From: Schmidtea nova
Taxonomy: Eukaryota
Length of the DNA stretch: 60,133 bases
Direction of reading: 5' to 3'
NCBI GenBank assembly: GCA_044892505.1
Contig: CM097884.1
Span: 18,972,001-19,032,133 of the forward strand
How positions within the stretch are numbered: the first letter of the stretch is position 1; each line of letters starts with the position of its first letter. Shown one piece after another: positions 188 through 23,672 of this stretch. A program made the position numbers and the translations under genes. The notes below the pieces were generated by a model. That model was not told where the DNA came from, did no database searches, and saw only the letters and a list, made by a program, of their open reading frames with translations.

Positions 188-247
188 TCATGCGAAATAA
201 TCCCGTGCCGTCGGGTCATAAAAATCGTACGGATCATCTGAGGTACC

Positions 248-288
<41 letters not shown>

Positions 289-3200
289 GAAGCTCTTGAT
301 TGCCATCCCGATCACCTACAAATATAGTGGTGTCACCCCCCATATAGTGGCCATACGCCAAACTTTTATTTTTTTCCACCCAGTTCCTCTTATCGTCCCT
401 ACAAGATAAAGCCCTCTTATTACTTTTAATACTAAAGAGCTGATGGTTTTTGCTCGTAATTCGGAACTGGGGGACATTATATATTTTGTCATTTAAAAAG
501 CAGTCAAGGTAAGACTGGTGTGTGAGACCTGCATCTTTCAAACAGATCCCCTTCGCTTTCATGCAGGCCTCGTCTCCCATCAGGCTATAACACTTAGGTC
601 TTAAGAAAACCCACTCATCATACAGTAGACCCTTATTCTCATCCTTAAATTTACCAATCACAGAATCAAGGGTCCTACTATACAATGTATGATGAGTGTC
701 GTAATTAGAGGTATCCAAAAGCCTATCGTCAATCATTGCGGTCAAAAGAGTATTTAAAGGCAGATTTTTGATTTCCAAGAAGAAGGAATCAGTATCCCCA
801 GCAACGATGTTAATTTCGCAGTTGAAGTCGTTACGATATTTTTGTAACTCTTCATACTGCAGCTGGTACATACGAAGTTTGGATAAATCCAGTACGGTTT
901 GTCCAATGTAGCTGGGTCTATCCAAACATACTGATTCCTTCTGAAGCAATACGGAGATGAGGTCATTGTCGATTTTGGTAGTTTTTTTGGAATTAGCTTT
1001 TGACGTGTAAGTCAGCAGTTTTTGTGCCGAGTTACACAGTCTTAAATTAATTCTTTTTTTTAAATTCTCTACGGTTTTGCCGTAGAGACTATTATTTAAT
1101 AATTTATAAAAGTTCTTATCGAGCTTATTTGTTGATGCAGCTCGTAAGTCGGTGTTTATTTTTATATAATTAAAAAAGATTTTATTTTGTGTAAATTTAA
1201 TAGCGCGATGTATGTGCGTTACCTTCACACCAATTTTAATAAATAGTTGCAGAAGCCGCCAATGAAGAACATAATTCTTCTTTGGAAGATGCGTTAGCAA
1301 CAGCTTCTCAACCTTGGATCCCGGTGCACACATCTTTTCAGCGGCAACTGGAAGATCATCCAGTTTGTCGTGAATCGATGCCGGAATTTCCAAATCCACT
1401 TCTATGGTGTAACCATAATGAAGTGTATCGAGATTTTCCGATGTGCACTCACAAACGATGTTATTTAATAATTGGTCATCAGTGACCCACTCAAAATTAC
1501 CACAAGGCAGGGGTTGGCTTAAGGCCCACCCATATAAATTATTAATATCAATATATAGTAATGCGGTATCCGGGCTCGTCTTGACATAATGTTTATTGAC
1601 AAACGTTAGTCCGCCGCGAATACCGCCCTCGAAAAAGTTATACATCTCCATATCGGTGAGGAGCTCGATAGGAGAGTCAAGAGTTAATAAAGCGGAACTC
1701 CACGACATGCCGGGAATTCCGAGAAAATTTAAAGGCTCAAGCCTGTTATGATTTATTGATTTTAATCGAAATTGCTGAAAATAGTCAGCTAACAAAAACA
1801 CATCCAATTTTAAATAAACCATCATGTAATCGTACAGTGATGTACATGAGGTTTCTTGCCAGATTTTATGGGCAGCAGCATACTCGACAGCAGTTATATC
1901 TTTCCATTTGGGGGGTAAACACAAGGTAGATTTTAAAACCTCTAAAGAAGTGGCCGCGTCGTAAGGAAAAATGCCCTTGGCAGTGACTATAGTACCGCGA
2001 AATTCAGAGTTTGTTAAAGGTAAGCTAGTAAGTGTTTTTACTGCATTATTTAGAGACTCACTTACAAACTGATAAGAGTCAATAAATTTTACGGTCAGGC
2101 TATCGATGTACGCGAAAAGACTTAAAAACTTTTCGCTGGTCAAGGGTATACAACTAATATTCCAACTGTTGTATTTGGAAAGACCATATTTTAAAATATG
2201 GTGCAAATCGTAACCCTTCAAGTTATGAAAAATTACGGGCAAAGAGTGGCGTATTTGCCGGGACTTGTTACACTCTGAGCAGGCTGCTCCAATATAAAGA
2301 CCTGTGAAATGGTCGTGATCCCTAACAGGTGCCACTAAAAGTTTTTTGCATAAATAGTAATTAGTGCTATTATCAAATTGTCGCTGTTGGGTCGCAGTAA
2401 TAGTCATACGTTTTTGATAATTTTTATAATAATAAGGTGTTACTATATACCGACTGATTGACTCAATTTCTCTTAAGAATTGATCAACACAGTCTAGCCC
2501 TACAAAAGATTTGTATATTCTCACCCCAGTAAAGTTGTTAATAAGAAGGAGACCTGCAGCAATAGGAAGATGTTTTTGGTGGTGAACAATATCTTTAGGT
2601 AATATTGCCTCGAAATCCGCATATATTACAAAAGGAGGAGTTACTGTTTTTTTCCAATCAGTAAACTCCAAAAATTTATTTTTTGGTAAGGTGTACAGTG
2701 TGGTACCCAACTGATTTTTGTTACAAAGACCCTTATGACGATTAAAGGCTTCGTCGTTCCTAAACCCATTCAAGCAACGAGGGCACCATTGACTGCAAAT
2801 CCTAACTGGGGTGATTGTGCTGTTTCGGCAATTCAAAAAACGATTCAGGTCGGTAATCGCAAGATAATGAAAATTATCTTTTTTCTCCAAGAGAAGCAAA
2901 TTTATGGGAATTGCCCCGACTACTTTACTGCGATATACTATGTCTATAAAAGGGTGTTTAAGTACGACATTATCATCATTATCGCTATCACTTATATCAA
3001 TTTGGGCCTTTTCATCATATGTAAGGACATTAATACTATAGCCACTGTTTTGTCTCTCAAATTTTTTTATGTTAACTAATTTCATGGGCATGTCGTTGGG
3101 GTCAAAAACAATTTGGGAAAGATCATAAGAAGTAGTCCTATGCCTGTATTGGCGTTCAATACTATTATATTTAACTACTGCTAAAAAGCTATATAAAAAG

Positions 3201-4384
3201 CAATAGGTGTCGTTATTTTGGACATTAACTAAACAACTTAAATTTTTTAAAGTATTCGGAGTCTCGATATAACTGCTGCCGCTCAATCGACTAATTTCAG
3301 AAAATTTAGTCACTAAAAAACTAATATATTCTATTTTGGAGATTGTCCAATTACTCCCCTTTTCGTTAATCTGGACAATCTTCTCATTTAAATTAGTGAC
3401 ACCTTCCTCAATAAAGGTATCACTCCACTCTCTAGCAGAATTTGAGATGACGAAAGATTGTAATTGATCATCTTTCTCAAATTCTACCTTGAGACAAAAT
3501 TGAATTTTTACTGATTTTAAATTAATTATATATGATTTTAGTTTTTCTAATAATATATCCGGCACAGAGACCGTTTTTAATAATAAATTAGAAACATCCA
3601 TTTTTATAATAAAATGGGTATCGTTCAAGTCGGAAGTAACTTCAACAATACCCATTCCAATTTGATTATTATTATTATTTAAAATATTAACATAATCGTC
3701 AAATTCATCATCATTGACGATTATGTCATCGGCGGATATAATACTGATATTAGTACTTTTATTATAAATAAGATCATCCTCATCANNNNNNNNNNNNNNN
3801 NNNNNNNNNNNNNNNNNNNNNNNNNNNNNNNNNNNNNNNNNNNNNNNNNNNNNNNNNNNNNNNNNNNNNNNNNNNNNNNNNNNNNNNNNNNNNNNNNNNN
3901 NNNNNNNNNNNNNNNNNNNNCTGATGTCGATTATTATAATTTTTTTAGGAACTGAATCCGTTAATGTAGTATTTTTTCTTTTATTTATATTAGATGTATT
4001 TATTTTATTTAGATTATTAATTTGATTTTGATTATTAGTATTTTGTAAATTATTTGTGTTAATATTATTTGTATTTGGATTTTGTAAATTATTTGTATTT
4101 GTATTATTTTGTAAAATATTTCTATTATTTGTATTTGGATTTTGTAAATTATTTGTATTTGTATTTGGATTTTGTAAATTATTTGTATTATTATTAAGAT
4201 TGTTATTAGTAATATAATTTTTATATAAAGAATTAAAAAGAGATTTTTTAGATGGTTGATATTGGGAAAGGTGTAACCTATGAAAGATATAAAATTCCCT
4301 ATAAGATGTCGTCTCAATAATTTTACATTTAGGGCATAGGAGGTGGGTGACACCATTATATTTATATGAATAATACTTTTCCAT
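188..4384 (-). CDS. Protein-primed family B DNA polymerase (pPolB) with EndoVII-like insert; spans an N-gap
   Basis: ExoI YADFEA, ExoII HNLKGYD, ExoIII YLKLDV, PolA YIDINNLYG, PolB KLLNNSLYGK, PolC GDTDS; RDHDH...CSECN insert; Asn-rich N-terminus, polyQ C-terminus. Confidence 0.97.
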
Positions 4385-5279
4385 AATGACATGACAGTCA
4401 CTATGGAAAGTATTGTTGCAAAAATTTTGATATATTGAGCCTGAATATGATGAAAAAAATTAAATCAAAGGCTACAATTAAAAAATAATCACAGTAAAAT
4501 AAAATATATAATTTAACTTATTATTTAATAAATATTTTAAACAATAATATGTTTTTGGATAATAATAACTTTTATTTATTTATTTTTTCTTTGAACAATT
4601 ATTTATATTTAAAATAATAGGTAATTGTTTAAAAAACATTTACATATTATATTAAATATAAATTTTTTATATCTATGCATAAAAAAAAATATATTATAAT
4701 AATCAAAGTTTTTTATATCTATACATAAAAAAAAAACATAATTATTCCATTATAAGATATTAATAAAATAGCATTAAAATAACTTAATCTTTTTCATAAA
4801 AAATATCTTTAAAATATCAAAAGATTCATTTTCTTCATTTAAATTATTTAAATTAAAATATCAAAATATTAGCTTCTTCATTATAATTCTTCATTAAAAT
4901 TCATCATTAAAATTCATCATTAAAATATCAATAAATTCATTATTTCATAAAAATATCCTAAAATATCAAAATACTATCTTCTTCATTAAAATTCATCATT
5001 AAAATACCATTAAAATATAAAAAAAAATTATTCTTTATTTCATAAAATATCAAAAGATTCATCTTCTTAATAAAAAATTATTTGGTCTTTAAAATATCAT
5101 CTTGTTCTTCATTAATAAACATCAAAAATTCATTCTTTTTCATTAAATTTCTTCATTAAATTTCTTCATTAAAATAACAAAAATTCATCTTCTTCATTAT
5201 AAAAAAGTACCATCATCATCATCGATAATATTAATAATTTATTTAAAAGATAGTAATTAAATTTTTAAAAAAAAAAAAA

Positions 5280-5686
5280 TCATATAATTACATTATCATC
5301 ATATAAAATACTAATATAAAAATTACATTTTTTAGAGTTTTTAAAACTCTGTCCATTAATATAGTTCGGGACATCAGTATAGTTCGGAACATCAATAATC
5401 GGGACATCAATAATCGGTACATCATCATCAATAAGAGAGCCATCTATATCGACGTTTTGGAAATTATTGCCTAAAAGTTTAATAATAAACAAAATAAAAT
5501 AGTATAAATTTTTACCAATTAAGTTATTTTTATTTCTGAGTCCGTTTGTCAAAGATCCTGACATATTATTAGCTAAATTAACACCTAGAAATAACATAAT
5601 ATAAATATAATAAAATAAAAATTAATAATTTTACTTTTTAGACCTCCGGCGATCCTTGTTGGTAAATTTATATTTAAATTTTGCAT
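5280..5686 (-). CDS. Spliced accessory ORF (MQNLNINLPTRIAGGLKSVNL...), exons 5686-5635, 5584-5516, 5470-5280; 3' end uncertain
   Basis: Two GT-AG introns (5634-5585, 50 nt; 5515-5471, 45 nt) join an ATG exon in frame; DVP repeats; CCAAT/TATA-like motifs upstream. Confidence 0.5.
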
Positions 5687-6064
5687 TATTTCTTCTTTAA
5701 AATAATTTGAAATTCGATTTAAAATTTGAAAGTAAAAAGTGACGAAATAATGCAAGTATATACTATATAAAGGTGAATTTTATTAACCGGCCAATCAGAA
5801 TCGAGATAGGATAGGCAAATACATGCACACATACTGCACACATAATGTACCTTTGTTTATGTGTGTTTGACGTCACGATATTGCTTTGTATTGTGACAAA
5901 GACATGACATGTCACGTTTTATCATGTGCTTATCACGCATTGATCACGCACTGGTCATGCCTTTGTGATGAAAATAATAATAAAAATAATTAATAATAAT
6001 AAAAATAATAATTAATAAAAATAATAATAAAAAATAATAATTAATAAAAATAATAATAATACAT

Positions 6065-6466
6065 TTATTGTTTTAAATAATCAACAACAGCAGACAAGCA
6101 CCCTTTATAGGCACACATACAATGATCTTTATAGGGACATGAAATGTTTTCAGGAACATATTCAACTTCTTTAAAATTATATTTAATTAATCTTAATTTG
6201 GGGAAATACTTCTTCAAAACATACATCTTTTCATTATCTGTTACATAGAAAATAGCTCCTTTATCGGTAATATCATCCATTATACATTTTGGGCAAAAAT
6301 AATCTTGTCCTTCAAACGATTCTATACGATCAGGCCATAAAGATAAATCACTGTATATATAATACTGAGGTGTGAAAATATTATTGACATTCATAATACA
6401 TAATTCCTTAATTGTTGTTCCACCCATTTCATTATATCCATAAAAATCGATAAAATAACAAGACAT
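6065..6466 (-). CDS. Polinton accessory protein, DnaQ/DEDD-exonuclease-like (probably inactive) with C-terminal Cys/His cluster
   Basis: IDFYGY...IKEL N-terminal pattern lacking the second acidic residue; CPYKDHCMCA tail. Confidence 0.45.
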   Translation of the reverse strand: MSCYFIDFYGYNEMGGTTIKELCIMNVNNIFTPQYYIYSDLSLWPDRIESFEGQDYFCPKCIMDDITDKGAIFYVTDNEKMYVLKKYFPKLRLIKYNFKEVEYVPENISCPYKDHCMCAYKGCLSAVVDYLKQ

Positions 6467-6498
6467 TTTTTCAAATAAAGTTTATTAAAATAAATTGT

Positions 6499-6876
6499 TT
6501 ATAACATTGATTTCAACCATGCAAGGCAATGTTCACCACAAGTGATTGTTAAAGGATGCTGATACCGAATTCTATTATACACAATAGGTTTACCAATAGT
6601 TTGTAGTTTTCGAACAAGTAAATTCGGATAATAATATCCAAAGGGATCAAATACATGTATTCGATCTGGTTTCACATAAACTGCAATCCAATGTTCACCG
6701 CCCAATGTAGATGTCTGAGTATTTACAATGATGGCTTGATTCATTTTCAAATAAGGTATTTTATCGAGAGGGAATACTCCAATAAATTGATTTCCCAATA
6801 GTTTTTTACCTTGTTGTAATACCTGAAAAGAACTATTTAAAAATAAATAACTAATCAATTAAAAATCTTACTCCAT
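6499..6876 (-). CDS. Adenain-like cysteine protease, spliced (exon 6876-6872, intron 6871-6833, exon 6832-6499; 112 aa)
   Basis: GEHW, FDPFG, YQH...TCGEHC catalytic motifs; splicing yields the start MDSFQV. Confidence 0.92.
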
Positions 6877-6955
6877 AATAAGAATAATAAAAATAATAAC
6901 TTTGATCATTTATACTGTTTGAGCTCTGTTCAAACTAATAATGTTTAAGCTTTGC

Positions 6956-8176
6956 TTAAACCAGTATTGTTCTATTGGCAGTAATTTGAACTTCATTTTC
7001 AAAAACTCCATAAATAACTACATGAACCGGTTCATCAATAGGTTTGGCAAACTTTATATCGAGTCGTAAATTTCCGTTTTGAGGGATTTGGCTTTGATTC
7101 AAATCAAAGTCGGGAGCGAGCACAAATGTAAAGAATGGATAACTAGATTTAAATTCATCCAGACTTATACCACAATTCAAGTTTTTATCCAAATATCCTA
7201 GATTTCGGACAAGACTTTGCATATATGATGCACTAAAATTATCATTTTCAAAATCTTGAGTATAAGTTTCTCGAAAATCAGTATTTTTCGATAACGATAA
7301 TGAAGTCACATTGAAATGTTTGAATGTAGATGCAGATTCAGCATATGATCCATTATATTGATTTTCAGTTTGAAAAGCCACAAGAATGAAATTAGGCATT
7401 CTTCTATCTCCAAATATTTGCTCCTTGTAAAATGACGATGCCCCTTTACCGATTGCAAACGATACGATTTCTTTGGATTTTAATGGATAAATTGCATGTT
7501 TACTATTTAAACCAATTTGATGACCGGCCAATACTGAAGAATCACATCGAACTCTTCTTACCATTAATTTTGCATCAACTATTTGGATTATAGGTTTCCC
7601 AGCTGCAGATTTCAATGATAATGAAGATTCAGATCTCTTCAATCTAATATGTACATTAACTCCGGGAAGTAAGTATTTTGGTTGATCCATAAAATCGAGT
7701 TGTAATGATGAACACATGTTGAAAAGTTTAGATCCCTTGATCCATTTTTTCCGATCGTCAGATGAACCATATCCCATTGGAGTAAGACATGTTTCTTTTG
7801 TATCGCTAGTATAATTTAAAACAGTTTCGATTATGGCCTTGTGTGCATATGTATTGTTTCCACCCTCGATTTTTATATTATTAAATCCAAGAATCGCATC
7901 TTTGAAAAGAGTATGAAATAGGTAATTATTAGGCACTACATCACTCGCATCAACTAATTTATTTTTATCTTTATCTAGAACCTTGACAGTAACGGATAAT
8001 AAAGTATCGTTCAAATCCAAATATTCGGTTGCCGATCCATTAATGTAAAATTCTACATCATTTCTACTATCTGTAATAGAATTCATTGGAAAAACATCTT
8101 CAAACACCCCATATTCAATAACTGCTTGAGGTGATGGTCGATCAAAAAGACATAATTCAGATTTACCGCAAATCAT
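6956..8176 (-). CDS. Major capsid protein (double jelly-roll)
   Basis: 406 aa; SELCLF..P.PQ N-terminus, EFYING...YLDL pattern, C-terminal LRLDIKF; position between protease and core proteins. Confidence 0.88.
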   Translation of the reverse strand: MICGKSELCLFDRPSPQAVIEYGVFEDVFPMNSITDSRNDVEFYINGSATEYLDLNDTLLSVTVKVLDKDKNKLVDASDVVPNNYLFHTLFKDAILGFNNIKIEGGNNTYAHKAIIETVLNYTSDTKETCLTPMGYGSSDDRKKWIKGSKLFNMCSSLQLDFMDQPKYLLPGVNVHIRLKRSESSLSLKSAAGKPIIQIVDAKLMVRRVRCDSSVLAGHQIGLNSKHAIYPLKSKEIVSFAIGKGASSFYKEQIFGDRRMPNFILVAFQTENQYNGSYAESASTFKHFNVTSLSLSKNTDFRETYTQDFENDNFSASYMQSLVRNLGYLDKNLNCGISLDEFKSSYPFFTFVLAPDFDLNQSQIPQNGNLRLDIKFAKPIDEPVHVVIYGVFENEVQITANRTILV

Positions 8177-8538
8177 TCTTCAAATATAGTTCCATGACCT
8201 TTCATTCGTTTGTTTATACGTTTTCTAATCTTTTTACGTCTTGGTCCTACCGGTTCAGGTTGCGGTTCGTTTTTGGAAAACATATTTGAAATTGACGGTA
8301 TCGCCTTGGATACAGCCTCCATAGCATTCGTTTTCAATGTAGGTAAAATTTTCTGATCTTTCATTATAACGTCTTTAGCAGTTTTCATTCCAAAACTGCC
8401 CAGTCGCTTAAGTAGTGGAAGTGCAAATCTTCCAATAGTTTTCAACCAACCTGATCCATACTGTTTACCTATAAAATACGGTAATTCGCCACCAGTTTGG
8501 CTATTACTGTACAATGAAATTATATCGGGATTACTCAT
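8173..8538 (-). CDS. Small basic core/membrane-lytic-like protein (adenovirus pVI-like)
   Basis: QTGG and QYGSG motifs, amphipathic WLKTIGRFALPLLKRLG, basic tail ending MKGHG. Confidence 0.6.
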   Translation of the reverse strand: MSNPDIISLYSNSQTGGELPYFIGKQYGSGWLKTIGRFALPLLKRLGSFGMKTAKDVIMKDQKILPTLKTNAMEAVSKAIPSISNMFSKNEPQPEPVGPRRKKIRKRINKRMKGHGTIFEE

Positions 8539-9556
8539 GATGTTTTCGAAAATGTAGAGTCAAATGAGTTTTTGAATTTTTTGGAAAGTTTATTAAATTA
8601 CCTCTATCATCTCGGATATTTATTTCTATATTGTTTATACAGGATGTTGAAACAGATAAATACATTGGATTTTCAACTTGTATTTGAACAACCTCATCCT
8701 GTTCATATTTTTCAATCCATACAGATTTCAACATGGGAACTAATGAATCACCGACAATTATAGGATTGACTATATTACTGTAAATGAACATTTGCTGATG
8801 AAGTTTAATTATTTTTGGTTTATATATTCCAACAATGAAGCTTCCGTCTTGAGCATATGTAGCTTTCGCTAATCCCAATGTTTTTACAAGGTTATTGTCA
8901 AAAGTTATTTCGCTAACATCTGCATTCAAACTGAATTTGAAGTAACTATCATCTACCAATTCCAGAGATTTAAAAATACTTGCACAATTTAGAATAAAAT
9001 ATGATTGCATTTCATCCAGTTTCGATATGTATAAATTATCGGTAAATGTATGTATAAATACAGAATCAGCCTTGTACTCCATCTTTATTCTAATTTTTTC
9101 CGTTAATGGACCATCTATACCATAATATGGTAACGGTATCTTGTATGTATCTGTAGGACTTACAATACTCTGTTTCGTTAATCCCATTCTTTTTGCCATT
9201 GCCAAAGTATCAAAAGTTATAGTGAAGGGAAAATTATCACAGGTAAAATAAATAGAATGTCTATCGCTACTGATTTGAGCAATATCATCGGCAGGATTAG
9301 ATATATCAACTTCACAAAATTGATTGTTGATAATCAAATTTTTATATTTTGTATGTATAGTTTTCTTTTTGTACCGAATTTCTGATTTACTGTAAAATGG
9401 AAATGGATTATACACAAATGTAAAGTCTAAGAGAGCGACTTCCCAAATTCCGTCCAAATACATTGGATTTTGGAGATTGACCATGAAATTACTGGAAGTA
9501 TTATCTGGATGTATATCTGGACAACTGTTGCTAGGTAGAATCATATAAAAATTCAT
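8531..9556 (-). CDS. Minor capsid protein (penton); likely start at 9556 (MNFY), track start 9583
   Basis: FYMILPSN...NTSSNF...L..P..LDG.WEVAL N-terminus and LTLHFRK C-terminus. Confidence 0.88.
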   Translation of the reverse strand: MNFYMILPSNSCPDIHPDNTSSNFMVNLQNPMYLDGIWEVALLDFTFVYNPFPFYSKSEIRYKKKTIHTKYKNLIINNQFCEVDISNPADDIAQISSDRHSIYFTCDNFPFTITFDTLAMAKRMGLTKQSIVSPTDTYKIPLPYYGIDGPLTEKIRIKMEYKADSVFIHTFTDNLYISKLDEMQSYFILNCASIFKSLELVDDSYFKFSLNADVSEITFDNNLVKTLGLAKATYAQDGSFIVGIYKPKIIKLHQQMFIYSNIVNPIIVGDSLVPMLKSVWIEKYEQDEVVQIQVENPMYLSVSTSCINNIEINIRDDRGNLINFPKNSKTHLTLHFRKHHE

Positions 9557-10600
9557 TTTACTAGGTTTTTTGATGATATCCATGATGGTTCTTTATATCC
9601 GTGCCACTTTACATAGTATTGTTTATCCTTACCCACCATTTTAGATTTCAGGATTTTTTGAATTCTAAATATTGTCGGTGGAGGAATAACTTGTAATTCT
9701 TGTTCGTAGAATTTCCCACTGATTATATTGTTATCAGAGTCACAAATAGTATACATGACAGGATTCTGCACTGTGTTGACTTTCGATATTTGATATACCT
9801 CATCACTCCAATTATTATCAAAATTTTTAATGAATGGCGATGCACTAATCTTGCTAATTCGAACATGATCACCAATTTTATATTTTGGTTTCTTTACTTT
9901 TACTTCACTCACAATATTTTCAGTATCAACTACTTCTGCCGGTTTCCTGCCATTTATACCCCGATGAGCACTATGATTATAACTATGAATCAATTGAGGT
10001 AAAACATTAATCCAGGTTTTATTGCCTTTAAAAACAAAGTATTTTTTCAATCGATCCCGCAAAGTTCGATTAAATCTCTCGACATGAGCGGCTTTGAATT
10101 GCGAGAATACCGAATAATGATTTATTCCCTTGATAACTTCCTTGACTTTACTGTTGTAAAATTCCTTTCCTAAAAAATATTAAAAAATGTATAAATTTAA
10201 ATTAAAATTTACCCAAATCGGTTTGTAAATTAGTTGGCCGATCCTTTTTCATCATTGTCTTGATAGCGATTGCCATGTCATTAGCTGATTTCGATTTTAC
10301 TCCAATTGCTCGAGCAAATCTACTGTAAACATCAATACATGTTAAAATATACTTGTACCCCTTGTTAATAGCGGAATACGGAATCATTTCCATCAAATCC
10401 ATTTGCCACAAATCATTGATTCTATATGTTTTATATGCTCGGGTTGGAAACCGTTTCAACATCGGTTTGTTTAGACTGTATGCAAGTTGCCCCGATAACC
10501 AACTTTGTGTCTGTTGTTTCGACTTCTGTGCTTTTTTCCTTAGCTTTTCGACTCCACCGAAACCGGCGTCGTCTTTTGGGTTCGTCCAGATCTTCTCCAT
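9553..10600 (-). CDS. Retroviral-type (rve) integrase with C-terminal chromodomain, spliced (intron 10212-10170; 334 aa)
   Basis: WQMDL, then QTDLG|KEFYN across the intron, VERFNRTL, YYVKWHGY chromodomain; spliced length 1005 nt, no internal stop. Confidence 0.95.
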
Positions 10601-10655
10601 TACAACAAGAAGATTTAAAGTTTAAATTCAAATTAGGTAATGATTGACCCATTGT

Positions 10656-11201
10656 TTATGACCTTTGTCCCAATAAACCAGCACCTCCCAATAATGATAA
10701 AGCTAGTGGTAATAATGCGGCAATAAATCCTCCTTGTTGTTTATATATTATTTTTCGCATAAGTTTTCGATTTTTTGTTTTTACTAGCGACAACAATGGT
10801 TTCTTATGCTTGTTCAAAACACGTCGATTAGATGGACTGAGATGCATTTTACCTCGTACTACTTTAATTAAAATAGTGAGTAAATCATCGATAACGTAAT
10901 TAGGAAACGATTGAAGAATACCCATTCTTCTAGCGGATGGGGCTTTAAGCAATGCATTAAAAAACGGAAAACTCCGATGATGTACTTGTTTAGCATTTGA
11001 TTTCAAATTAATTGGAATTTGATTTTGTTTGGGAAAATTATCCATAATTAGTTTTTTCGATGGTGTATAACTTGTTTTTGAAACTGATTTTGAAACGGAT
11101 TTCTTTGTCGATTTCTTTCTTCGACCTGCTTTCTTACCTATTTTCATTGATTTTCGAGCTTTTATCAATCGTTCAAACTTTACTCGAGATTTCATTAACA
11201 T
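10656..11201 (-). CDS. Basic core protein with adenovirus pX-like C-terminus
   Basis: K/R-rich; ends QQGGFIAALLPLALSLLGG. Confidence 0.55.
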   Translation of the reverse strand: MLMKSRVKFERLIKARKSMKIGKKAGRRKKSTKKSVSKSVSKTSYTPSKKLIMDNFPKQNQIPINLKSNAKQVHHRSFPFFNALLKAPSARRMGILQSFPNYVIDDLLTILIKVVRGKMHLSPSNRRVLNKHKKPLLSLVKTKNRKLMRKIIYKQQGGFIAALLPLALSLLGGAGLLGQRS

Positions 11202-11221
11202 TATTATTACTGTAAATCAAT

Positions 11222-11845
11222 TTAACTTTGTTTATAAACCATGGCTCCTTCCTTGTTAAAAATATCAGTTCTAACCCTTAAATCATCACTGCATTGTTGA
11301 GTAAAATCCAAGAAAATATATCCATGAGGAGATTTTGTAGCATCCTGAAAGGCTTCAATCAAAAAGTTACGATTTGAAGGATAAGCTTGTCTTGCCAGAA
11401 AATCAATAACTGTTGCATCTCTAGGATTTTTAAAAACAACAAGATATTGAACATTTAAATTACGAGTTCGATGACTACCGCCCTGATGAAATAAATTCTG
11501 AGTTATAAAAATAACAGTAACACCTTTATGTCTACTGATTTTCGTAAATAAATTATTAAAATCCTTTTCTTTATTTGCTTCTTGATACAAGTCGTCAATG
11601 ATAATCACATCACCTTGTTTTAATCTAGATGACCAGTTTTTATCGAAACCTTTTATGATTGTCATTTTTATTTTACAAAACTGATCTTGTGTCATTCCAC
11701 TTTCGTCGTCAGCACCCCTATGCCAATAAATATTATTAAATTTCGACTTGAATAATTTCGATTGCAATAATTTACAAACAAATAAAGTTTTTCCACTCCC
11801 GCTAGGACCAACAATTTGAAACACTGCATCATTTCTTAATTCCAT
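11222..11845 (-). CDS. A32-like genome-packaging ATPase
   Basis: Walker A GPSGSGKT, Walker B IIIDDL, SRH..VTVIFITQ, KNPRD. Confidence 0.93.
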   Translation of the reverse strand: MELRNDAVFQIVGPSGSGKTLFVCKLLQSKLFKSKFNNIYWHRGADDESGMTQDQFCKIKMTIIKGFDKNWSSRLKQGDVIIIDDLYQEANKEKDFNNLFTKISRHKGVTVIFITQNLFHQGGSHRTRNLNVQYLVVFKNPRDATVIDFLARQAYPSNRNFLIEAFQDATKSPHGYIFLDFTQQCSDDLRVRTDIFNKEGAMVYKQS

Positions 11846-11938
11846 ATTTAAAAATTATATTTTCTTAATATTATTGTTTATATTTGTTTTAAATACCTGT
11901 TCTCAAAGTAATCATTTCATTTAAAAATATTTTCAGTA

Positions 11939-12406
11939 ATGATTAGAAACATTAATTACAAGGGTAAGACAGATGTATCACACATGAAATTTCCAAATGG
12001 AAAACCCCAGCAAATTGTAGATCGAAGTGGAAAATACCCAATAATATACTTTAAATCAGGAAGATATAGAATAATGGGATGCAGGGAATTTATTAGTGAC
12101 GAACAAGTTGAGTTTTACGATTTAAAGATACAATCGATAACTGTAACTGCAGATTTAGGATTTATTTGTAATTTGAATGAATTATCGAAATTAATACCAT
12201 GTGTTTACGAGCCAGAATTATTTCCAGCTTTGAGATATATCAAATATAATCCCATGTGTGTAAATATATTTGCAAGCGGAAAATTAGTCATATTAGGATT
12301 AAAAAACAAAGACTATAGTACTATAGTTGATGATATTATTTACGATATAAAATCAATTATAGAAGATAAAGCCTTTGTTGATTTCATACTAACATGTGAC
12401 TCATGA
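11939..12406 (+). CDS. TATA-binding-protein-like protein
   Basis: ITVTADLGF..NL, YEPELFPAL and IFASGKLVILG match the TBP second repeat; IYFKSGR resembles a degenerate first repeat. Confidence 0.85.
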   Translation: MIRNINYKGKTDVSHMKFPNGKPQQIVDRSGKYPIIYFKSGRYRIMGCREFISDEQVEFYDLKIQSITVTADLGFICNLNELSKLIPCVYEPELFPALRYIKYNPMCVNIFASGKLVILGLKNKDYSTIVDDIIYDIKSIIEDKAFVDFILTCDS

Positions 12407-12574
12407 CTGCAATATCGATGCATTAGAAATGCACGATTCTGATTGGCTCTGTGTGTATCGTTAGAATAAAGACATGTTGTGCATGCTTCATTCTGATTGG
12501 TTCATTATGTGTGTTTCAAATCATGTGTGTTTCTTTGATATATATACTATGAACAATCTCGCATATTCACAATA

Positions 12575-13221
12575 ATGTCTCTTACGCAAACACTAATTAA
12601 AAGCCGTAAGGATTTTTAATTATTTATTTATTAAAATTAATATTATTTCTTTTTTTAGAAAAGCTGATGAACGTCATATATCGGAAGCTGGAGGAACTGT
12701 TCCCAAATCTGATGCCGGCTCTGGTCTACACGGCTCCGGAGATGTTCCCATATAAAATTATGGTCCTGACTGGTATCGATATAAACCAGATTGTGCTCGA
12801 TCATATGACGAGCCAGAATACCGATTTGCCAGTGGTACCCGAGCACATTATCTGTGCGTACCAATGCGGAAGTTGTGTTGAGCGCATTCGCCAATTCAAC
12901 ATTTGGGTTTTGCGAAACTCATTGAAATTATACGAAGTCCAACAAATGGACAAAATCAATGAGGAGGAGGAGGAGGACCAAATCAAGGAAACCTGGCCCA
13001 ACTCAACTCCGGAGCCGACTGATGAAACAACAACAACAACAACAGAATTGGAAGCACCAACTCTAGATGGTCCGTTTCCATCCGATGAATCCGATGAATC
13101 CAATGATTGTATGGATTCGCCACAATCACCGGATTGTGCAGAATGCCATCGACAAGCTGATGGTGGTGTTGAGGAGGAAGAAGAAGAAGAAGAAAAAGAA
13201 AAAGAAAACACCGAACAATAA
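12575..13221 (+). CDS. Spliced accessory protein, Cys-rich and acidic (intron 12606-12658; 197 aa)
   Basis: GTAAGG...TTTTAG intron joins MSLTQTLIKS in frame to QKLMNVIY; paralog at 27609-28043. Confidence 0.7.
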
Positions 13222-13747
13222 TTTGATGTGTGTGTGTGTTTAATGTATTTAGTTTTTAGTTTTGTAATTTTAGATTAATAAAAGTTTTTTTTTTTTTTTT
13301 TTTTTATTCATTTTAGTTTTTATTTTTATTTAAATAATAGTAATACTTTTTGATAAAAAAATTTTTTATTAGTAGTTTTTTATTAACTATATAAAATAGT
13401 AATTAGTTTTTATTAAATAATTAGTAAGAAAGTGTTTTATGAAAGATAATATTAATAATAATAATAAAAAATAATAAAAATAATTGTTAAATAAACAAAT
13501 AAGTAAATACATTAGTAGCAGAACATTGCAAACAGAACCCTGGACGTAGAACTTATTCTGTGATTGTTTTTATATGAAAAAGCTTCATAATAAATAATTA
13601 AAACATACATGCATGCATACAACAAAGACATTGCAATACATGTGCATACTGTGTGCAAAACAAATGCATGAATATGATTGGACAAAGACATCCAGTCATC
13701 AGTATAAATACAAAGACATTTTATAAAATATTGTCACTATTTACAAC

Positions 13748-14164
13748 ATGCAATCACGAAAACAAAATCTCGATATATGCGATGAAAAAATATACCAGAC
13801 TGAGGTAAAACCAGTTCAGATGTACTATGACAGCCGACTTTATTTTTTGGTTAATGAAATACCGTATCGATTATCATTTCCGGTAAAATTAACAAAATCT
13901 TTATATGATAGTCTTGCTGTAATTATTGCCAAGGAAGATATTATCGCATTAAATAGATTATTTTCAAAGATGAATGTTAATTTGACATGTAAAGAAACCA
14001 TGTACATCAATAACAGAAAAACTCGGTTTCATGATGCTTTTCAAACTATTGATTTCATGGATCAAGAACACTGGTTCGTTACAGTTATTATTCAAGGGTA
14101 CAAGATTGATAAAAAAGATGTTGTTACTCCGATTTGGAGAGTTGACAATGCAAGATACGCATAA
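13748..14164 (+). CDS. Polinton accessory protein of unknown function
   Basis: 138 aa; clear paralog at 31656-32063 (shared PVQM, FLVNE, FHDAFQ, IQGYKID, PIW). Confidence 0.7.
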   Translation: MQSRKQNLDICDEKIYQTEVKPVQMYYDSRLYFLVNEIPYRLSFPVKLTKSLYDSLAVIIAKEDIIALNRLFSKMNVNLTCKETMYINNRKTRFHDAFQTIDFMDQEHWFVTVIIQGYKIDKKDVVTPIWRVDNARYA

Positions 14165-14228
14165 TTGTTTTTTAATAAATATTTTAGTATGAACAAATTT
14201 AGTTTTTATATTAGTTTTTGTTTTTAAA

Positions 14229-14816
14229 ATGAAATTAATTATAGTTATTTTATTATTATGTGTTGATAATACTGAAGGAGAACAAGCTTTGGAAGATTGT
14301 CAATCATCCCATCCGTTTCGAAAACAAGATAGTACTTGCGCGAGTTATAACGATATATGTCTTTACTCAAACATTGAATGCAATCAAATAAAATTACAAT
14401 GTAATCAATGTCCTTCCAAAAATAATGTGATTAATAAAGATATTGAAAAAATGATTAACAAAATAATGATGAAAATAGTTGAAAGATTAAAATGTATAAA
14501 TCAAACTATTGTTAAAAAAGAATATGAAGTCAGATACCAAAATCAAACAGTGGAAAACGAAAAAACAGCAATTGTTTTACATTATATAAGTTTATTTATA
14601 TTAATAATTATAATGATGTTATCGGCATCCATACGGCTGGAGAAGATTTCAAATATTCCAAAGAATAATATTCCGACAAATACTAGTATTCCGATGAATA
14701 ATATTACAATGAATAATAATAATATTCCTATGAATAATATTCCGAGTAATAATTCAGATGTAAATAATTTTGAAACGAAATTTTGTACACGTACACAACG
14801 ATATATTTATAAATAA
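14229..14816 (+). CDS. Predicted type I membrane protein with Cys-rich ectodomain
   Basis: Signal-like MKLIIVILLLC, Cys-rich segment, TM IVLHYISLFILIIIMMLSA, Asn-rich tail. Confidence 0.55.
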   Translation: MKLIIVILLLCVDNTEGEQALEDCQSSHPFRKQDSTCASYNDICLYSNIECNQIKLQCNQCPSKNNVINKDIEKMINKIMMKIVERLKCINQTIVKKEYEVRYQNQTVENEKTAIVLHYISLFILIIIMMLSASIRLEKISNIPKNNIPTNTSIPMNNITMNNNNIPMNNIPSNNSDVNNFETKFCTRTQRYIYK

Positions 14817-14830
14817 ATTTTGGCTTTTTA

Positions 14831-14995
14831 ATGTCTTTGTTTATGTTGTACATGTGTTGCACGCATGTGTCTTTGTTTAGTTTGCATGTGTATTGCAATG
14901 TCTTTGTTCATGTTGCACGCGTGTTGCAAAGTCCTTGCACGTGTGTTGCAATGTTTTTGTTAACTTGCACGCGTGTTGCAATGTCTTTGTTTAGT
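14831..14995. repeat. Imperfect tandem repeat of ATGTCTTTGTT / GTTGCACGCGTG units
   Basis: Several ATGTCTTTGTT and TTGCA(CGCG)TG copies visible. Confidence 0.7.
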
Positions 14996-15219
14996 TTGAA
15001 AGATAATAATTAAATAAAAAACATTAGTAGCAGAACATTTAGTATCAGAACCCTGGAAGCAGAACATTGCGATCAGAACCCTGGAAGCAGAACCTCTTCT
15101 GTGATGGTTTTGAAGTGCAAAAGCTTCATACTTGACAAATAATAATTAATTAAAAATGCACACATATAAAAATGTCTTTGTTTGCACACCTGTTGTAAAT
15201 ATTTTTGATGACTCTAATT

Positions 15220-15590
15220 TGGTCTTATAAAAATAATTTGTCTTAAAAAAAAAATTTTTGAAAAAAATAATTTGTCTTAAAAAAAAAAAAATTTTTTGAA
15301 AAAAATATTTGGTCTGAAAAAAAAATTATTGAAAAAAAAAATTTGGCGCGAAAAAAAAATTTTGAAAAAAAAATTGGCGCGAAATAAATATTTGAAAAAA
15401 AAAATTTGGCGCGAAAAAAATTTTTGAAAAAAAAATTTGGCGCGAAAAAAAATTTTGAAAAAAAAATTTGGCGCGAAAAAAATTTTTGAAAAAAAAATTT
15501 GGCGCGAAAAAAATTTTTGAAAAAAAAAATTTGGCGCGAAAAAAATTTTTGAAAAAAAAATTTGGCGCGAAAAAAATTTTTGAAAAAAAA
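15220..15590. repeat. Subterminal ~31-bp tandem array with 8 TTGGCGCGAAA (E2F-consensus) cores
   Basis: GGCGCG cores start at 15345, 15376, 15408, 15439, 15470, 15501, 15533, 15564; three degenerate units precede. Confidence 0.9.
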
Positions 15591-15597
15591 AAAATTA

Positions 15598-15771
15598 TGA
15601 CTCATCGATGACTCATCGATGACTCATCAAAAAAAAGTATGACTCATCGATGACTCATCAAAAAAATTTTTTTTTCTACCCCCCCCCGGGGGGAGGGGGG
15701 TCTTTGTTCTTTTTTTCCGCCCACGCATGAGTCATAATGTCTTTGTTCCCGGCTCCACACATCTACCTACT
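15598..15771. promoter_or_regulatory. Right terminal region with TGACTCA (AP-1-consensus) repeats and C/G-run palindrome
   Basis: Five TGACTCA in 15598-15660, TGAGTCA at 15728, C-run/G-run at ~15679-15700. Confidence 0.7.
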
Positions 15772-18700
15772 AGAGAAAGTAACAAGAAACTCACACCACT
15801 CTTCAAAGCAGAAGCACCATACCAAGCTAGACTAGATGCGATACAAGAAAAAGCAAAAGAATTGTTACCGGAATTCGAGAATAGTAAACATGCACTGGAA
15901 ATACTCGGTGCATTAGTTGAAAAAGTACACGCATACGCAAAAGGAACATACAATGGTAACGATATAACGACTATAAAAAAGGAGATGCCAGTAACATTTT
16001 TACTACCAAAGGACGGAATAATGCCCATACATAGAGCTCTACGAAATGGCAAAGATAAAAAAGTAATGGAAATTGCAAGAGTAATGTTAAACTGCGGAAG
16101 CAACATGAATATGGTAGACGAGAAAGGAGATACACTCATGATATTTGCAGCAAGGGCCAAAACGAAAACAAAAGTGCTGGAAGAACTATACAAAGCAGGT
16201 GCAGGACTTACAGGAAAGACAGACAAAGATAATTCAATTCTGGATGTAGCATTACTAACACATAATTGGGAAATGGTCAACTTCATTAAAACAATCTCAA
16301 ATCAGGAAGAAATAGATTACCTAACTGATACGGTCAGGAAACCCAGTGTACTAACAATGATGCATAATGTCGAACTAACAGAAGCAATACTTACGTGGAT
16401 AAATCCGAATACTATCGAACCAGCATTCAGGATTAATGAGTTTACAGAACATAACCAAAATTGGTGCATAAGAAGTGCCTTAATAACGTATAAATGGCCA
16501 GAGATATTGAAGATGTTTATGGAAAGAAAGGATCTAAGGATCACAACCAGCCCGAAGGAAGAAAAGTACACAGGCAAATGGAAAGAATTGATGAAGACAT
16601 ACATCAACAATTGGATCAAGGCCAAAAAGGAAATCTTAGAATATAAATCCACTAACAAAGTAATACCAGAACAGGTAGAAACACAAGAGTTTGAGGCAAG
16701 TAATCTAACGACATTAGCGTATGCGAAACTAATAGAAGAAATCAATGTCGAGGACGACATTTTCGACGAGCCAGGGGGAGATGACAATACAGATAGTGAC
16801 GACGGTAACAACGCAGAAAATTCAAACGATCACGAACCACCCGATAAAGAGGAAAACGAGAGAAAAGACAAGAAACGAGACAAGGAAGAAAAGAAAAGTA
16901 AAGACGAAAAACAAAGAGATGAAGAGGGAGAACAAGGAAAAAACGACCAAGGAGATAAAAATGACACCCAAAGAACAGGTTATAAATCAACCATAAAACC
17001 ATTCTTCAAACCAGAATTACTATTATTAACAGTGATTTTAACGTTAATTAACCCAAGTCAAGGAATGACATGTGAAGAAAGGGCAATAATACAAATAAAA
17101 AACGCGAAAGGAATCGAACGAGTATGTTGGTCAAAAAAGGACAAAATCACGGAACAAAATAGTCCGATGGATTGCAGAATCTCAAAACACGAGCAAGAGA
17201 TCATAGAGATCAATGACCTAGATCTAAATACCTGGTACAAAATATGCACCGTTAGAAAACAAAAGCATCCAAGATCACGCAACACAATCGCATGTGCAAA
17301 ATACCAAACACCTAAAGCAGCCATGACAATACAACAGTCACCCAAAGGAGATTACATCCTCGGAAAATGTGGAAGAACAGAGACACAGGGAACAGAAAAC
17401 AAAAAACCCCAGGCAATAGATAAGCAAGCAACACCAACCCTACGAATTACAATAAAGAGGCCCGAAGCAAGAGTTGCCACAAACGAAACCGAAAGAGTGT
17501 CTTACCAAATGGAAGTATTATGTTTAGCACTCATACTAATAATAATAAAACGATTAGAGGAAGGGATAGAAATCGAAACTATGACAATAACAGAAGTAGA
17601 AGATACACAGAATACTAACATAAAATGTTGGGCGAGGAATAACGAGGAAATCGGCGTAAATGAAATAAGGAAAAGTCGAAAACCAACAACGAATAAAGTA
17701 ATTAAAGTATCCGAAGTAAAAGCAGATAAAACGTACAAACTATGCCTACTAGAAAAAGAGAGAAACAAGAAAGGTACCAAAAAATGTAAAACATTCCAAC
17801 CTGGAGAAGTAATAAAGTTCAGAAGGAGAACGAGGAAGAGAAATAAACAAATCAAGCGGAAAGTAAACATAACATTAGAAATAAAAGAGATAGAACCAAA
17901 TGTGAAAGGAGTATGCTGGAGGAAGTACGAAAAAGAAGTAAATAAAAGAACGACACCACAATGTCGAACAAACACAGGAACAACGACGATTCAAATAAAA
18001 GGTTTAGAAAGTAAACAAACCTACGAAATATGTTTGGTAAAGAAAAATGATCAGATAACGATAAACGACCTAGAATGCGGAATATATACAACTTCATCCG
18101 GAACAAGAACCAAAACGTTAACACGGAAAAATAAAAGGAAACAACAAAACAAAGAAAAACCGAAGTACACCACTACCTTTAAAAACAATAAACAACCAAC
18201 AAACCAAGAAGTTACGACGAAACCCGAGAGAAAAACATCAGCAACTCTAACATTATGGAAAATAGAGAATAAAACATTAGAAATATGTTGGATAATAGTA
18301 CAGAAACATATAAGAAGACAATCAAGAGAATGCAGAAAAACAAATAAAGAAATCAAGATCGAAAAACTACAATTTAATAGCGAGTATGAAGTATGCGCAA
18401 TAGAAATAATGGACGCACTAGGAAACCAACAAGAAAGATTCGAAACCTACTATACACCAGTAAACGCGACATCAAAAGGAATAACAAGGAAACTCGAATT
18501 CAGGGAACTAAGCCAAACGAATGAACAAATGGACGCAGAAAAAATAATAATCGACCCTCAAGCAAAATGGACACCCGAAGAAGTTATCAAAGAAGTCAAA
18601 AGAAAGCAAGAGGAACGAGAACAATTAATGAGAAAACTAAAAGGACAATACGGAATAATGTTCAACCAAAGCAAATCTATACAAACAGACGAGAATTAAC

Positions 18701-18966
18701 AAATCAAAGAATTAATTGGCTTAGGAATATTAACAGCGACCATACCGGTAATAATCGCATTATCAGCTATATGGATACGCAAGATAAGCCCAAGAAAATC
18801 AACAACCCAATGGCTAAATATAGATAATACAAGCCATGGAGTCGAAATACTGGAAGCACGAGAAGAACCAAGATCGACCAGGAATGAGAAAGAAGCAAAA
18901 GGCGGAAAACTGGGAATGAACAACGAAGACAAAGAAATAGAAGAGATTAAAAGCAAAGAGACGTAA
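15727..18966 (+). CDS. Ankyrin repeats + acidic linker + internal signal-like peptide + four FN3-like repeats + TM; in-frame TAA at 18697-18699 precedes the TM
   Basis: About three ANK repeats (GIMPIHRA, GDTLMIFAA, DNSILDVA); CW...C...L.xxYxIC repeats; frame continues as LIGLGILTATIPVIIALSAIWI. Confidence 0.7.
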
Positions 18967-19008
18967 TATGAAAGGCGAACCAGAAGCCTACCGCAGAGTT
19001 CAAAATGG

Positions 19009-20469
19009 TTGGGTCTAACAATAATATTGACATTAATCAATAGGGAAGAAGCAATAAACCCACAGACAGGGATAAAAGTAATAAATGTTCAGGAAGTCGA
19101 GAAAATATGTTGGTATAGAGAAGATGAACCAATTGGAGAAAATAACCCACTAAAATGCATAATCCGAAAATCCGACCAGGATATAGTACGAATAGAAGAA
19201 ATGGATGGAGGGACCATGCATCGGATATGCATAATAGAAAAGGAAAAGAAGTCGGGGCTACCTAAGACAGTCGTATGTCAAAAATATGAAACACCTAGAC
19301 TTGAATGGTATAAAGTAAAACCAACAAAGAAGGAAATTAAAAACACAATAGATCAACCAGCAACTCAGATGAAAAACACAACGGACAAACCAAGAGAGGG
19401 GGAGAGAAGCACAAATAACACGAGAGAAGGAGTATCACCCCAACAAGATTTTGTATGCATAGCGTTAATAATAGCAATGTCCAAACGTATCGATAAAGGA
19501 ATAATAATAGAACAAATGGCTATGACAATAAGGAGAAAAGACCAAAGCAACAACATATGCTGGGGATGGTACAACGAACCTAGGGAATACCAAGTTCAGA
19601 CAAGCGACGAATCACGAACAAACCAGGAAACCGAAATACAAGAAATACAAATGAACGGAGAAGGAAGTATATGTATATGGGAGAAAGGAATCCAAGAAGA
19701 TCAAACCGGAATAGAAAAATGCAAGACATTCCAAAAAGGAGAGATTCTGAAATTCGATAAAAAAGAATTAACCAAAACAGAAAGAACTCTGACATTAACA
19801 GGACTTGATCAGACAGTGAAAGGAATATGTTGGACAAAGCATAACCCAGAAGGAGAAGAAGCCAACCTAACCCACTGTAAAGAAACAGGGAATAAGGAAA
19901 AAGTCGAATTAAAGAAAATGGAAGTAAATAAGACATACGCGATATGTACCTTCACCAGAAAAGGTTCAGAAAAACCAGAATGCGGATTATATCAGATCTC
20001 AGAGAAACTACAACAACAGATCAAACCAGGAAACGTGGAAAACCGAACAAAAGAAAATAACGTCAAACAACTACTAAACCGCCATTGGTCTACCCAAGAA
20101 GTAATGAACAAAATCAAGAGTCAAATACAGAAAGAGAAGAAGCCAGAGGCTCAAACCCAAAATGAGATAAAAGCGAATCAGAAGAAAATCAAAGCAACAA
20201 ACCGTGGAAAAACAGTAATAGGACTAATCAGTATAGGAATATTAATAGCATATGGAATACTGACGACAAGCATAATAGTATATTGGAGATACAGAAAGAG
20301 AAACAAAGCGACAGCCATACAATGGCCAGATATTAAAATTATGAAACAAAGAATAGAGATACCAGAAGAGATACAGAAAGAATTTCAAAGAAGAACGAAA
20401 GGTAAAGAATTCTGGAAACAAATAGAAGATGAAGAACGATACGAAGAAAAGACGATAATGATGGTATAG
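19009..20469 (+). CDS. Membrane protein with three FN3-like repeats and TM; no ATG start, same frame as the upstream ORF
   Basis: Paralogous to the FN3 module upstream (ILTLIN, VCIALII..KR, W.xEV, TM, QWxxI). Confidence 0.7.
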   Translation: MGLTIILTLINREEAINPQTGIKVINVQEVEKICWYREDEPIGENNPLKCIIRKSDQDIVRIEEMDGGTMHRICIIEKEKKSGLPKTVVCQKYETPRLEWYKVKPTKKEIKNTIDQPATQMKNTTDKPREGERSTNNTREGVSPQQDFVCIALIIAMSKRIDKGIIIEQMAMTIRRKDQSNNICWGWYNEPREYQVQTSDESRTNQETEIQEIQMNGEGSICIWEKGIQEDQTGIEKCKTFQKGEILKFDKKELTKTERTLTLTGLDQTVKGICWTKHNPEGEEANLTHCKETGNKEKVELKKMEVNKTYAICTFTRKGSEKPECGLYQISEKLQQQIKPGNVENRTKENNVKQLLNRHWSTQEVMNKIKSQIQKEKKPEAQTQNEIKANQKKIKATNRGKTVIGLISIGILIAYGILTTSIIVYWRYRKRNKATAIQWPDIKIMKQRIEIPEEIQKEFQRRTKGKEFWKQIEDEERYEEKTIMMV

Positions 20470-20594
20470 GGGCGGATTATGACTGTAAATAATAGTGTAA
20501 ATAACAAAGCATTACCGTAATAGTATGGGTATCGATATTATAAAAATTGTAAAAAGATAGAAAAGCAAAGTAAACGATGTATATAATTTAGAAA

Positions 20595-20951
20595 ATGACC
20601 GAACAAGACGAAACAACGGAAATAACTATGGCTATGAGATGGAAGGCACAATGCAATTTATTAGTACGAACAGTCAACTCATTACAGAACCAATTAGCGG
20701 AAAAACAAATGTTACTATCAGAAAGTTATAACAACTGTTTCGAACAATTACACAGAATAGAAGAACAACAAAGAATGATAACCGAACTCACCAGAGAAAA
20801 TCAAACGATAAGCAACATCAATCAAAGACAAGCAATAGAAATAAACCATTTAACACGAGGAGAAAGAGAAGAATCCGAAGAAGGATGGATGAGTTGGGTA
20901 ATAAATAGATTAAACAACGAAGCGGAACCAGATTCAACGAATGAGCCATAG
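20595..20951 (+). CDS. Coiled-coil protein of unknown function
   Basis: 118 aa with heptad pattern; shares the unit A spacer motifs. Confidence 0.6.
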   Translation: MTEQDETTEITMAMRWKAQCNLLVRTVNSLQNQLAEKQMLLSESYNNCFEQLHRIEEQQRMITELTRENQTISNINQRQAIEINHLTRGEREESEEGWMSWVINRLNNEAEPDSTNEP

Positions 20952-21043
20952 ATAAATAAAGCGGAAAATTGTAAATATGTAAAAATAAAAACAAGAAAAA
21001 TCAAAAATAAATGACAAGTCGAATGTATATATTATTGTAGAAA

Positions 21044-22420: not shown

Positions 22421-22531
22421 TGAAGAAAGTAACCATGTAAATAAACTGTATAAAACAATATGAAATAACAAATAATCAAAAACAATAAAAATAAAAACTG
22501 ATTAAATATTCTTTTATCTGTAATTATAGAA

Positions 22532-23593: not shown

Positions 23594-23672
23594 ATGAGCG
23601 GAAACCAATTGTAAATAGATGATGTAAAATAAAAAGCGTCAAGCTGTATTGACTCCTATGTAAAGATAGAAA

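Follow-up and report, generated by a model that had tools for sequence, protein, structure and literature searches.

Could a tandem array of E2F-consensus sites just inside the end of a Polinton tie the element to the cell cycle of its host? We know of no account of the replication timing or the latency mechanism of Polintons. The window analysed here is a 60,133-nucleotide stretch of Schmidtea nova DNA with 70% AT and a CpG o/e of 1.04. Judged by gene content and terminus, its positions 1–15771 are a Polinton/Maverick (Table 1), and the element sits within an A-rich ankyrin/TRAF-MATH element resembling the planarian Burro.

The Polinton genes pass Pfam cut-offs, with the capsid below them; capsid homologues share 39–82% identity. 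The integrase is read as two ORFs parted by a 43-nt A/T-rich GT...AG stretch at 10170–10212, which is probably an intron rather than damage, and a run of N lies inside the polymerase ORF. An acidic, lysine-rich minus-strand frame at 1–200 overlaps the polymerase stop and exits the window, and given this frame there may be another gene before the left end. Comparison of window 1–187 with the right end revealed no mirror, 24 of 200 shuffles scoring as high, and the true left end lies outside the window. The right tip at 15771 ends CTACCTACT and reads AGTAGGTAG inward, so that the AG...CT terminal motif is present in a form near, and not exactly, (AGT)2. Its position is fixed by three sister ends in the window that share the AGTAG tip and the AACAAAGACAT-type motif; the alignment with the 48988 end covers 45 nt, with blastn giving 83% over 46 nt (E 2.7e-5). 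Mavericks generate 6-bp target-site duplications, and the terminal repeats of those in vertebrates average 402 bp, ranging from 46 to 1447 (PMC8097293). The E2F cores lie 203–422 bp inside the tip, which bears out their proposed location at a Polinton end. Given these repeat lengths and the putative repeat of about 840 bp in a distant relative described below, the array is probably inside the terminal repeat of an element whose left end falls outside the window.

Other motifs at this end are multiplied as well. Six AP-1-type sites are present, five outward of the array and the sixth at the tip, and ATGASTCAT occurs 10 times in the window against 0.76 expected, 6 of the 10 in the array-bearing end. 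The ACAAAGACAT motif, which we take to resemble a SOX/TCF site, occurs 13 times against 0.26 expected, with its copies at 13622–13710 oriented with the gene downstream, and its conservation exceeds that of the E2F array. The labels AP-1, CRE, GC-box and nuclear-receptor used here are likewise presumed assignments. A 120-bp block at 15058–15180 recurs as a direct copy, with 76% identity, in the intergenic stretch that precedes ORF 13748. An ATG and 15 codons in the final 45 bp of the Polinton read in frame into the interrupted ankyrin ORF beside it, and the resulting chimeric plus-strand frame at 15727–18699 (990 codons) starts just downstream of the E2F/AP-1 array. Beyond the tip, 15772–24450 is an A-rich run of ORFs (AT skew about 0.5) that lack introns, encode ankyrin, TRAF-zinc-finger/MATH and coiled-coil domains and resemble planarian Burro retroelements (PMC6431247). 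Farther along, 742-bp inverted repeats flank a reverse-transcriptase ORF, and a divergent proteasome alpha fragment and long palindromes are found. Four sequencing runs of one study and organism contained 0.68–0.80 of the words of 11000–15800; as they may include the source sample, they lend no independent support, and a soil-metagenome run at 0.34 is not counted as evidence. Among the runs listed no RNA run carried these words.

Table 1. Features of the Polinton, its right end and the surrounding window (positions in the window; "." denotes no assigned strand).
Feature	Position	Strand	Basis
Polinton gene body	188..14816	.	Pfam profiles, ORFs
pPolB	188-4384	-	DNA_pol_B_2 E 1e-22
Protease (adenain)	6499-6858	-	Peptidase_C5 above Pfam cut-off
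Capsid (double-jelly-roll)	6956-8176	-	DJR-like E 0.005, below cut-off
Integrase with chromodomain	9553-10600	-	rve above cut-off
A32 packaging ATPase	11222-11845	-	Pox_A32 above cut-off
TBP-like protein, 155 aa	11939-12406	+	Pfam TBP E 1e-13; Atlas TBP clusters 0.96
Three ORFs ending at 14816, directed towards the array	up to 14816	+	ORF list
Subterminal repeats, periods 31, 30, 28/14, with four inward-pointing ACAAAGACAT motifs	14830..15190	-	repeat and motif scan
Four inner variant units, GTCT cores (TTTGGTCTT, TTTGTCTT twice, TTTGGTCTG), longer A-runs	15218..15341	.	motif scan
Eight units of 31/32 bp; two-sided E2F consensus core in each, TTTGGCGCGAAA (TTTCGCGCCAAA on minus)	15342..15573	.	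repeat and motif scan
TTTGAA (CHR/LIN54-type hexamer), one per unit, midway between cores	15361..15584	+	motif scan; A/T-step peak 15.6 bp
Five AP-1-type ATGACTCAT sites, 11-bp period, 31-bp block duplication	15597..15660	.	repeat and motif scan
A/T tract, C8-G6 run, partial TCTTTGTT motif, GC box (GGGCGG on minus)	15661..15726	.	read from sequence
Conserved tip: AGTAG terminus, AACAAAGACAT motif, bZIP (AP-1) site	15727..15771	-	shared with ends 32506, 48554, 48988
Predicted 6-bp target-site duplication, its partner outside the window	15772..15777	+	Maverick 6-bp duplications; 5/6 duplication of the 435-bp sister
ACAAAGACAT sites	5896, 13622-13710, 14840-15181, 15746, 32481, 33161, 33632, 48963		Polinton-family intergenic regions and tips
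Reverse-transcriptase inverted repeats, proteasome fragment and palindromes, jointly	30473-38033, 49592-50119, 51997-52558, 59263-59795

The array was originally predicted to hold eight cores 31–32 bp apart, and all eight are exact copies of TTGGCGCGAAA, starting at 15343, 15374, 15406, 15437, 15468, 15499, 15531 and 15562 with spacings of 31, 32, 31, 31, 31, 32 and 31 bp. Tandem amplification of the unit is supported by TRF (15286–15591, period 31, 9.7 copies, 90% matches). The proposed two-strand E2F consensus was likewise recovered, TTTSSCGC being matched in all eight units on the minus strand and in seven of the eight on the plus strand. The full 12-mer TTTCGCGCCAAA, which we take to be the E2F site of the DHFR promoter, an identity that the one paper checked for it did not contain, reads on the minus strand of 7/8 units. 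With TTSSCGC taken as the E2F consensus from Table 1 of PMC5716687, the cores match TT(T)SSCGC at the level of sequence. Only two further TTTSSCGC matches occur in the remainder of the 60-kb window, and the scan found none elsewhere in the array-bearing Polinton.

Each unit is itself built from two T-run...CAAA monomers of 15/16 bp, one with the CGCGC core and the other with TTTGAA on the plus strand. Of the 1024 possible five-base cores between TTT and CAAA, two give the consensus on both strands, and at window base frequencies the chance of such a core is 1.9e-4 (2.2e-3 for one strand), values that are uncorrected for the many other motifs one could notice. As a single origin was amplified by tandem duplication, the eight cores count as one event and not eight. 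Compared with unit 5, the array contained 0/42 differences in the core and 8/175 in the flank (P=0.17, A/T-boundary shifts scored as differences); the core sequence is thus invariant across the eight units, without significant excess conservation over the flanks. A 120-codon minus-strand ORF over the array was rejected as low-complexity read-through. The single-strand DNA fold scored z -3.9, but the centroid retained only short A/T hairpins, as expected for such repeats, and an Rfam search returned four matches, all far under the gathering score.

On the inner side the array was thought to end in three decayed units. There are in fact four variant units, with cores starting at 15218, 15237, 15271 and 15308 (three of them inside 15220–15590), and GTCT is common to every one, which marks them as a second unit type and not as independent decay products. 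The unit adjoining the array, TTTGGTCTG, is intermediate in form. These units resemble TAAGGTCAAA repeats of the sister ends, with 9/10 matches of that motif in terminal regions, the motif having been picked post hoc. Derivation of the inner units from the sister-end TAAGGTCAAA repeats was not confirmed by unbiased tests, which failed to single out the 32506 end; it gave a local score of 36 (tied 3rd–6th of 588 tiles) and stood outside the top ten by shared 7-mers. The E2F core may accordingly reflect either a gain from the GTCT type or the reverse.

The original prediction also attached significance to the shape of the DNA. The cores do share one helical face; as evidence, however, this phasing is unremarkable, since near-three-turn periods are common by chance: among 42 tandem arrays in the window, a list chosen by hand from tandem-repeat output, 11 have a period within 1 bp of a multiple of 10.5, as compared with 10/37 of the integers from 10 to 46. 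Bending by phased A-tracts was not borne out. The A/T-step periodicity peaks at 15.6 bp with an amplitude of 53, against 9 at 10.5 bp, and in a crude two-state roll model the net roll of the array was 3.6–9.1 units (helical repeats 10.2–10.6) versus 80.6 for an ideal phased tract, about a tenth of the ideal and at the 16th–69th percentile of window tiles. Since the A-tracts are a full turn long and recur every 15.6 bp (1.5 turns), their bends cancel and no curvature is predicted. A/T tracts exclude nucleosomes. Their share of the array is 71%, the highest value in the window, against 12% in the median tile, and nucleosomes should therefore be disfavoured here; of the structural proposals, nucleosome exclusion is accordingly judged likely from composition. 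PATCs of C. elegans, which derive from Helitron minisatellites, are similar as A/T-cluster-rich transposon minisatellites that could resist silencing (bioRxiv 10.64898/2026.08.08.743475). They are, however, described there as having 10-bp periodicity and curvature, whereas the array is almost without a 10–10.5-bp component, and under the roll model it does not appear to be intrinsically bent DNA of the PATC kind.

How far the array is shared was judged from other Polinton ends. In the window these comprise an orphan right end of the same family at 32140–32506, with nuclear-receptor-like AAGGTCA repeats and no left partner found within the window, and a gene-less 435-bp element at 48554–48988 with AGTAG/CTACT Polinton-type ends, imperfect inverted repeats, a 6-bp target-site duplication (5/6) and CRE, AP-1 and CCAAT motifs. 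Further AP-1 and ACAAAGACAT motifs occur near the orphan end at 33130–33640. The tip, the AACAAAGACAT-type motif and bZIP sites are common to all four ends of the window, while the E2F consensus is present in one of the four, ends 32506, 48554 and 48988 having T-run-GCGA only. Protein searches of genome contigs returned three loci, of which just one (L022) extends to an end. This distant relative, a near-complete Polinton at 1–12067 with a capsid 45% identical, was found in a bacterial soil MAG and is probably a binning contaminant there. Its putative terminal repeat of about 840 bp contains tandem repeats of 138 and 63 bp, and no E2F consensus was found anywhere in L022, this repeat included. 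Across the related elements compared, the E2F sites thus appear not to be conserved (0/3 sister ends, 0/1 distant relative), and each end examined bears its own, differing repeats.

Tandem pairs of the TTGGCGCGAAA core were observed in 4 of 2.9 million viral contigs, belonging to two families. The first has five to six core copies with a 27-bp period beside a phoH gene, and the second two copies beside a phage terminase gene. The pattern can therefore arise without E2F. In two IMG/VR contigs of this kind (L020 and L021) the 27-bp TTGGCGCGAAA array lies at 4001–4150 near an intein-bearing phoH and possibly represents phage origin iterons. Neither the array pattern together with TTTGAA nor the Polinton terminus pattern gave a match in the viral contigs, and protein searches of these contigs with capsid and ATPase found no relative. 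In metagenome contigs the terminus pattern was matched 17 times, and all 17 were judged chance on inspection.

Adenovirus is a relative of Polintons. The E1A enhancer of Ad5 contains an E2F site, TTTCGCGGGAAA, at nt 280 from the genome end (within nt 270–290) that is described as conserved across serotypes, bound by E2F/Rb, repressive and needed for persistence (PMC4726734). Like the array, this is a two-sided TTT-GC-AAA site that a few hundred bp separate from the terminus of a linear, protein-primed dsDNA element, and it lies among AT-rich repeats and other host-factor sites, as in the Polinton end. It differs, by the same description, in being a single conserved functional site upstream of an immediate-early gene, whereas the Polinton has eight tandem sites that are downstream of the nearest genes, absent in sister ends and only predicted to be bound. 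The adenovirus precedent, if applicable, indicates repression and persistence as much as S-phase activation. Mobile DNA offers a further comparison, Henaff reportedly having described in 2014 that Brassicaceae MITEs amplified E2F sites. Transposon-borne E2F sites of Brassicaceae are bound in vivo (PMC5950925, PMC7329337), although PMC6268010, a supporting paper cited for MITE E2F sites, is listed as retracted. As presented in these sources, a DNA transposon there multiplies a single E2F motif, and the proposal is that the element benefits and not its host; unlike the Polinton, which is animal, self-synthesising and virus-like, it is a plant, non-autonomous cut-and-paste element.

The reading that we prefer, tentatively, is that the array was amplified recently, is specific to its lineage and serves as a docking platform for host E2F-DP/Rb where chromatin is open, comparable to the repressive E2F site of the adenovirus E1A enhancer. 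It draws support from the two-strand consensus, the presence of just two other sites in the window, the low chance of the core, the Ad5-like position, the AP-1 enrichment, the A/T-tract cover and the in vivo binding of E2F sites in Brassicaceae transposons. Planarian neoblasts, moreover, express e2f4-1 and lin9 (PMC4494696), and stem-cell promoters there are marked by T-stretches, although the available text of that promoter study reports no transcription-factor motif driving neoblast genes and contains no mention of E2F (PMC10558129). The reading is weakened by the lack of TTTSSCGC elsewhere in this Polinton, by the absence of the consensus from 4/4 other ends, by the core/flank comparison and by the viral tandem cores. 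Those last three observations also favour a neutral minisatellite, produced by slippage in strand-displacement replication at Polinton ends, in which the E2F-like core arose by chance and is unselected, with incidental binding possible. That every end examined carries different repeats, and that TTT/AAA flanks come free with A/T runs, would follow from such an origin, which we regard as possible though doubtful: the core is among just two of 1024 with the two-strand consensus, it is GC-rich in a 30% GC genome, and the adjoining repeats also multiply host-factor consensus sites. Alternatively, the units could bind a protein of the element itself, either as a packaging signal like the adenovirus A-repeats, with the packaging ATPase acting at CG, or as an origin iteron array. 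The Ad5 packaging domain (nt 220–400) has seven redundant AT-rich repeats at 21-bp spacing (PMC5033970). In the terms of that source, the array has the same distance from the end, a similar number (seven or eight) of redundant AT-rich repeats with CG and a same-face spacing, TTTG and CG occur in its units, and the Polinton codes for a capsid and a protease as well as an A32 ATPase. It is, however, a perfect tandem with a period of 31 and not 21 bp, TTTG-N8-CG has no match on either strand of 15172–15771, the unit is absent from the sister ends, yet the 435-bp element was mobilised, and on the counts given above ACAAAGACAT is the better element-wide candidate. An element-protein array is thus quite unlikely, and the array may nonetheless function like the adenovirus end region while failing the A-repeat comparison.

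Two host-factor alternatives address other parts of the sequence. In a DREAM/MuvB composite, the E2F core and TTTGAA of each unit would jointly recruit E2F4-DP and LIN54. TTTGAA, a canonical CHR, fits the hexamer TTYRAA in 8/8 units, the pairing of an E2F-type GC core with a nearby TTTGAA recalls CDE/CHR and E2F/CLE elements, and a CHR is reported to act without a CDE (PMC5716687, PMC4974476). The spacer that defines those elements is 4 nt, however, against 10–11 nt on the plus and 10–12 nt on the minus strand here, and the array is eightfold and not at a known start site; TTTGAA/TTCAAA also has a background of 2.4 per kb in the window and recurs in the inner non-E2F units. By its spacing the array does not look like a tandem CDE/CHR or E2F/CLE element, and a composite is very unlikely. 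A Smad-response array next to AP-1 sites, in which both core types are Smad MH1 sites, would account for the switch of core type, the eight outer GGCGC and four inner GTCT all lying on one strand, and CAGAC and GGC(GC)/(CG) being given as Smad sites (PMC5727232). As these are 4–5-bp motifs of little information, the full CAGAC occurs in just one inner core, and the TTT...AAA flanks on both sides are left unexplained, this reading is the least credible.

For the E2F-DP/Rb docking platform a sequence of steps can be proposed. The repeat itself displays the first: the 15/16-bp T-run...CAAA monomer makes up a 31-bp dimer, in which CGCGC completes the two-strand consensus, and the unit has been amplified eightfold. 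By established chromatin rules the 12–13-bp A/T tracts would then create a nucleosome-poor region with accessible sites, where E2F-DP could occupy several positions along one helical face. Together with a pocket protein (Rb/DREAM) it would damp the element in non-dividing cells and free it in dividing ones at G1/S, activation being supplied by the neighbouring AP-1 cluster. The nearest three ORFs point towards the array, which is therefore not their proximal promoter, and it would instead enhance or silence at long range, or assist the terminal origin. Coupling to the cell cycle in this form is part of the same tentative reading: the array would silence while cells rest, and once they divide it would act as an enhancer or help the origin. 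The tip, AACAAAGACAT and the bZIP sites are what is conserved in the end, to which this lineage alone would have added the array.

A bolder version, which we consider unlikely, is a latency switch of this Polinton lineage: a GTCT unit would have turned into the two-sided E2F site and been amplified eightfold with LIN54 sites, Rb/DREAM silencing the element in differentiated cells and stem-cell division releasing it. The array would then preserve the intermediate step, TTTGGTCTG beside TTTGGCGCG. Schmidtea Polintons are described as piRNA-silenced and de-silenced during differentiation (PMC8532177), which by itself does not favour a stem-cell switch.

Transposons, and viral genomes near their ends, are already known to carry E2F sites, and the eightfold array at a Polinton end is apparently new by our searches. 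No description of E2F sites in Polinton ends was found in the literature searched, which was mostly open-access and without Repbase reports; among the matches listed, papers naming both E2F and Polinton had one mention apiece, and E2F is not mentioned in the available text of PMC11410931. With eight clean E2F sites in tandem next to an AP-1 cluster, at a position that parallels the adenovirus site, this end offers a short and directly testable candidate control region, and the latency switch, if true, would give a Polinton its first defined region of control by host factors. Without E2F/Rb binding the array would be one more terminal minisatellite. Binding by E2F/Rb, if true, would suggest a way in which such elements target stem or germ cells that divide.
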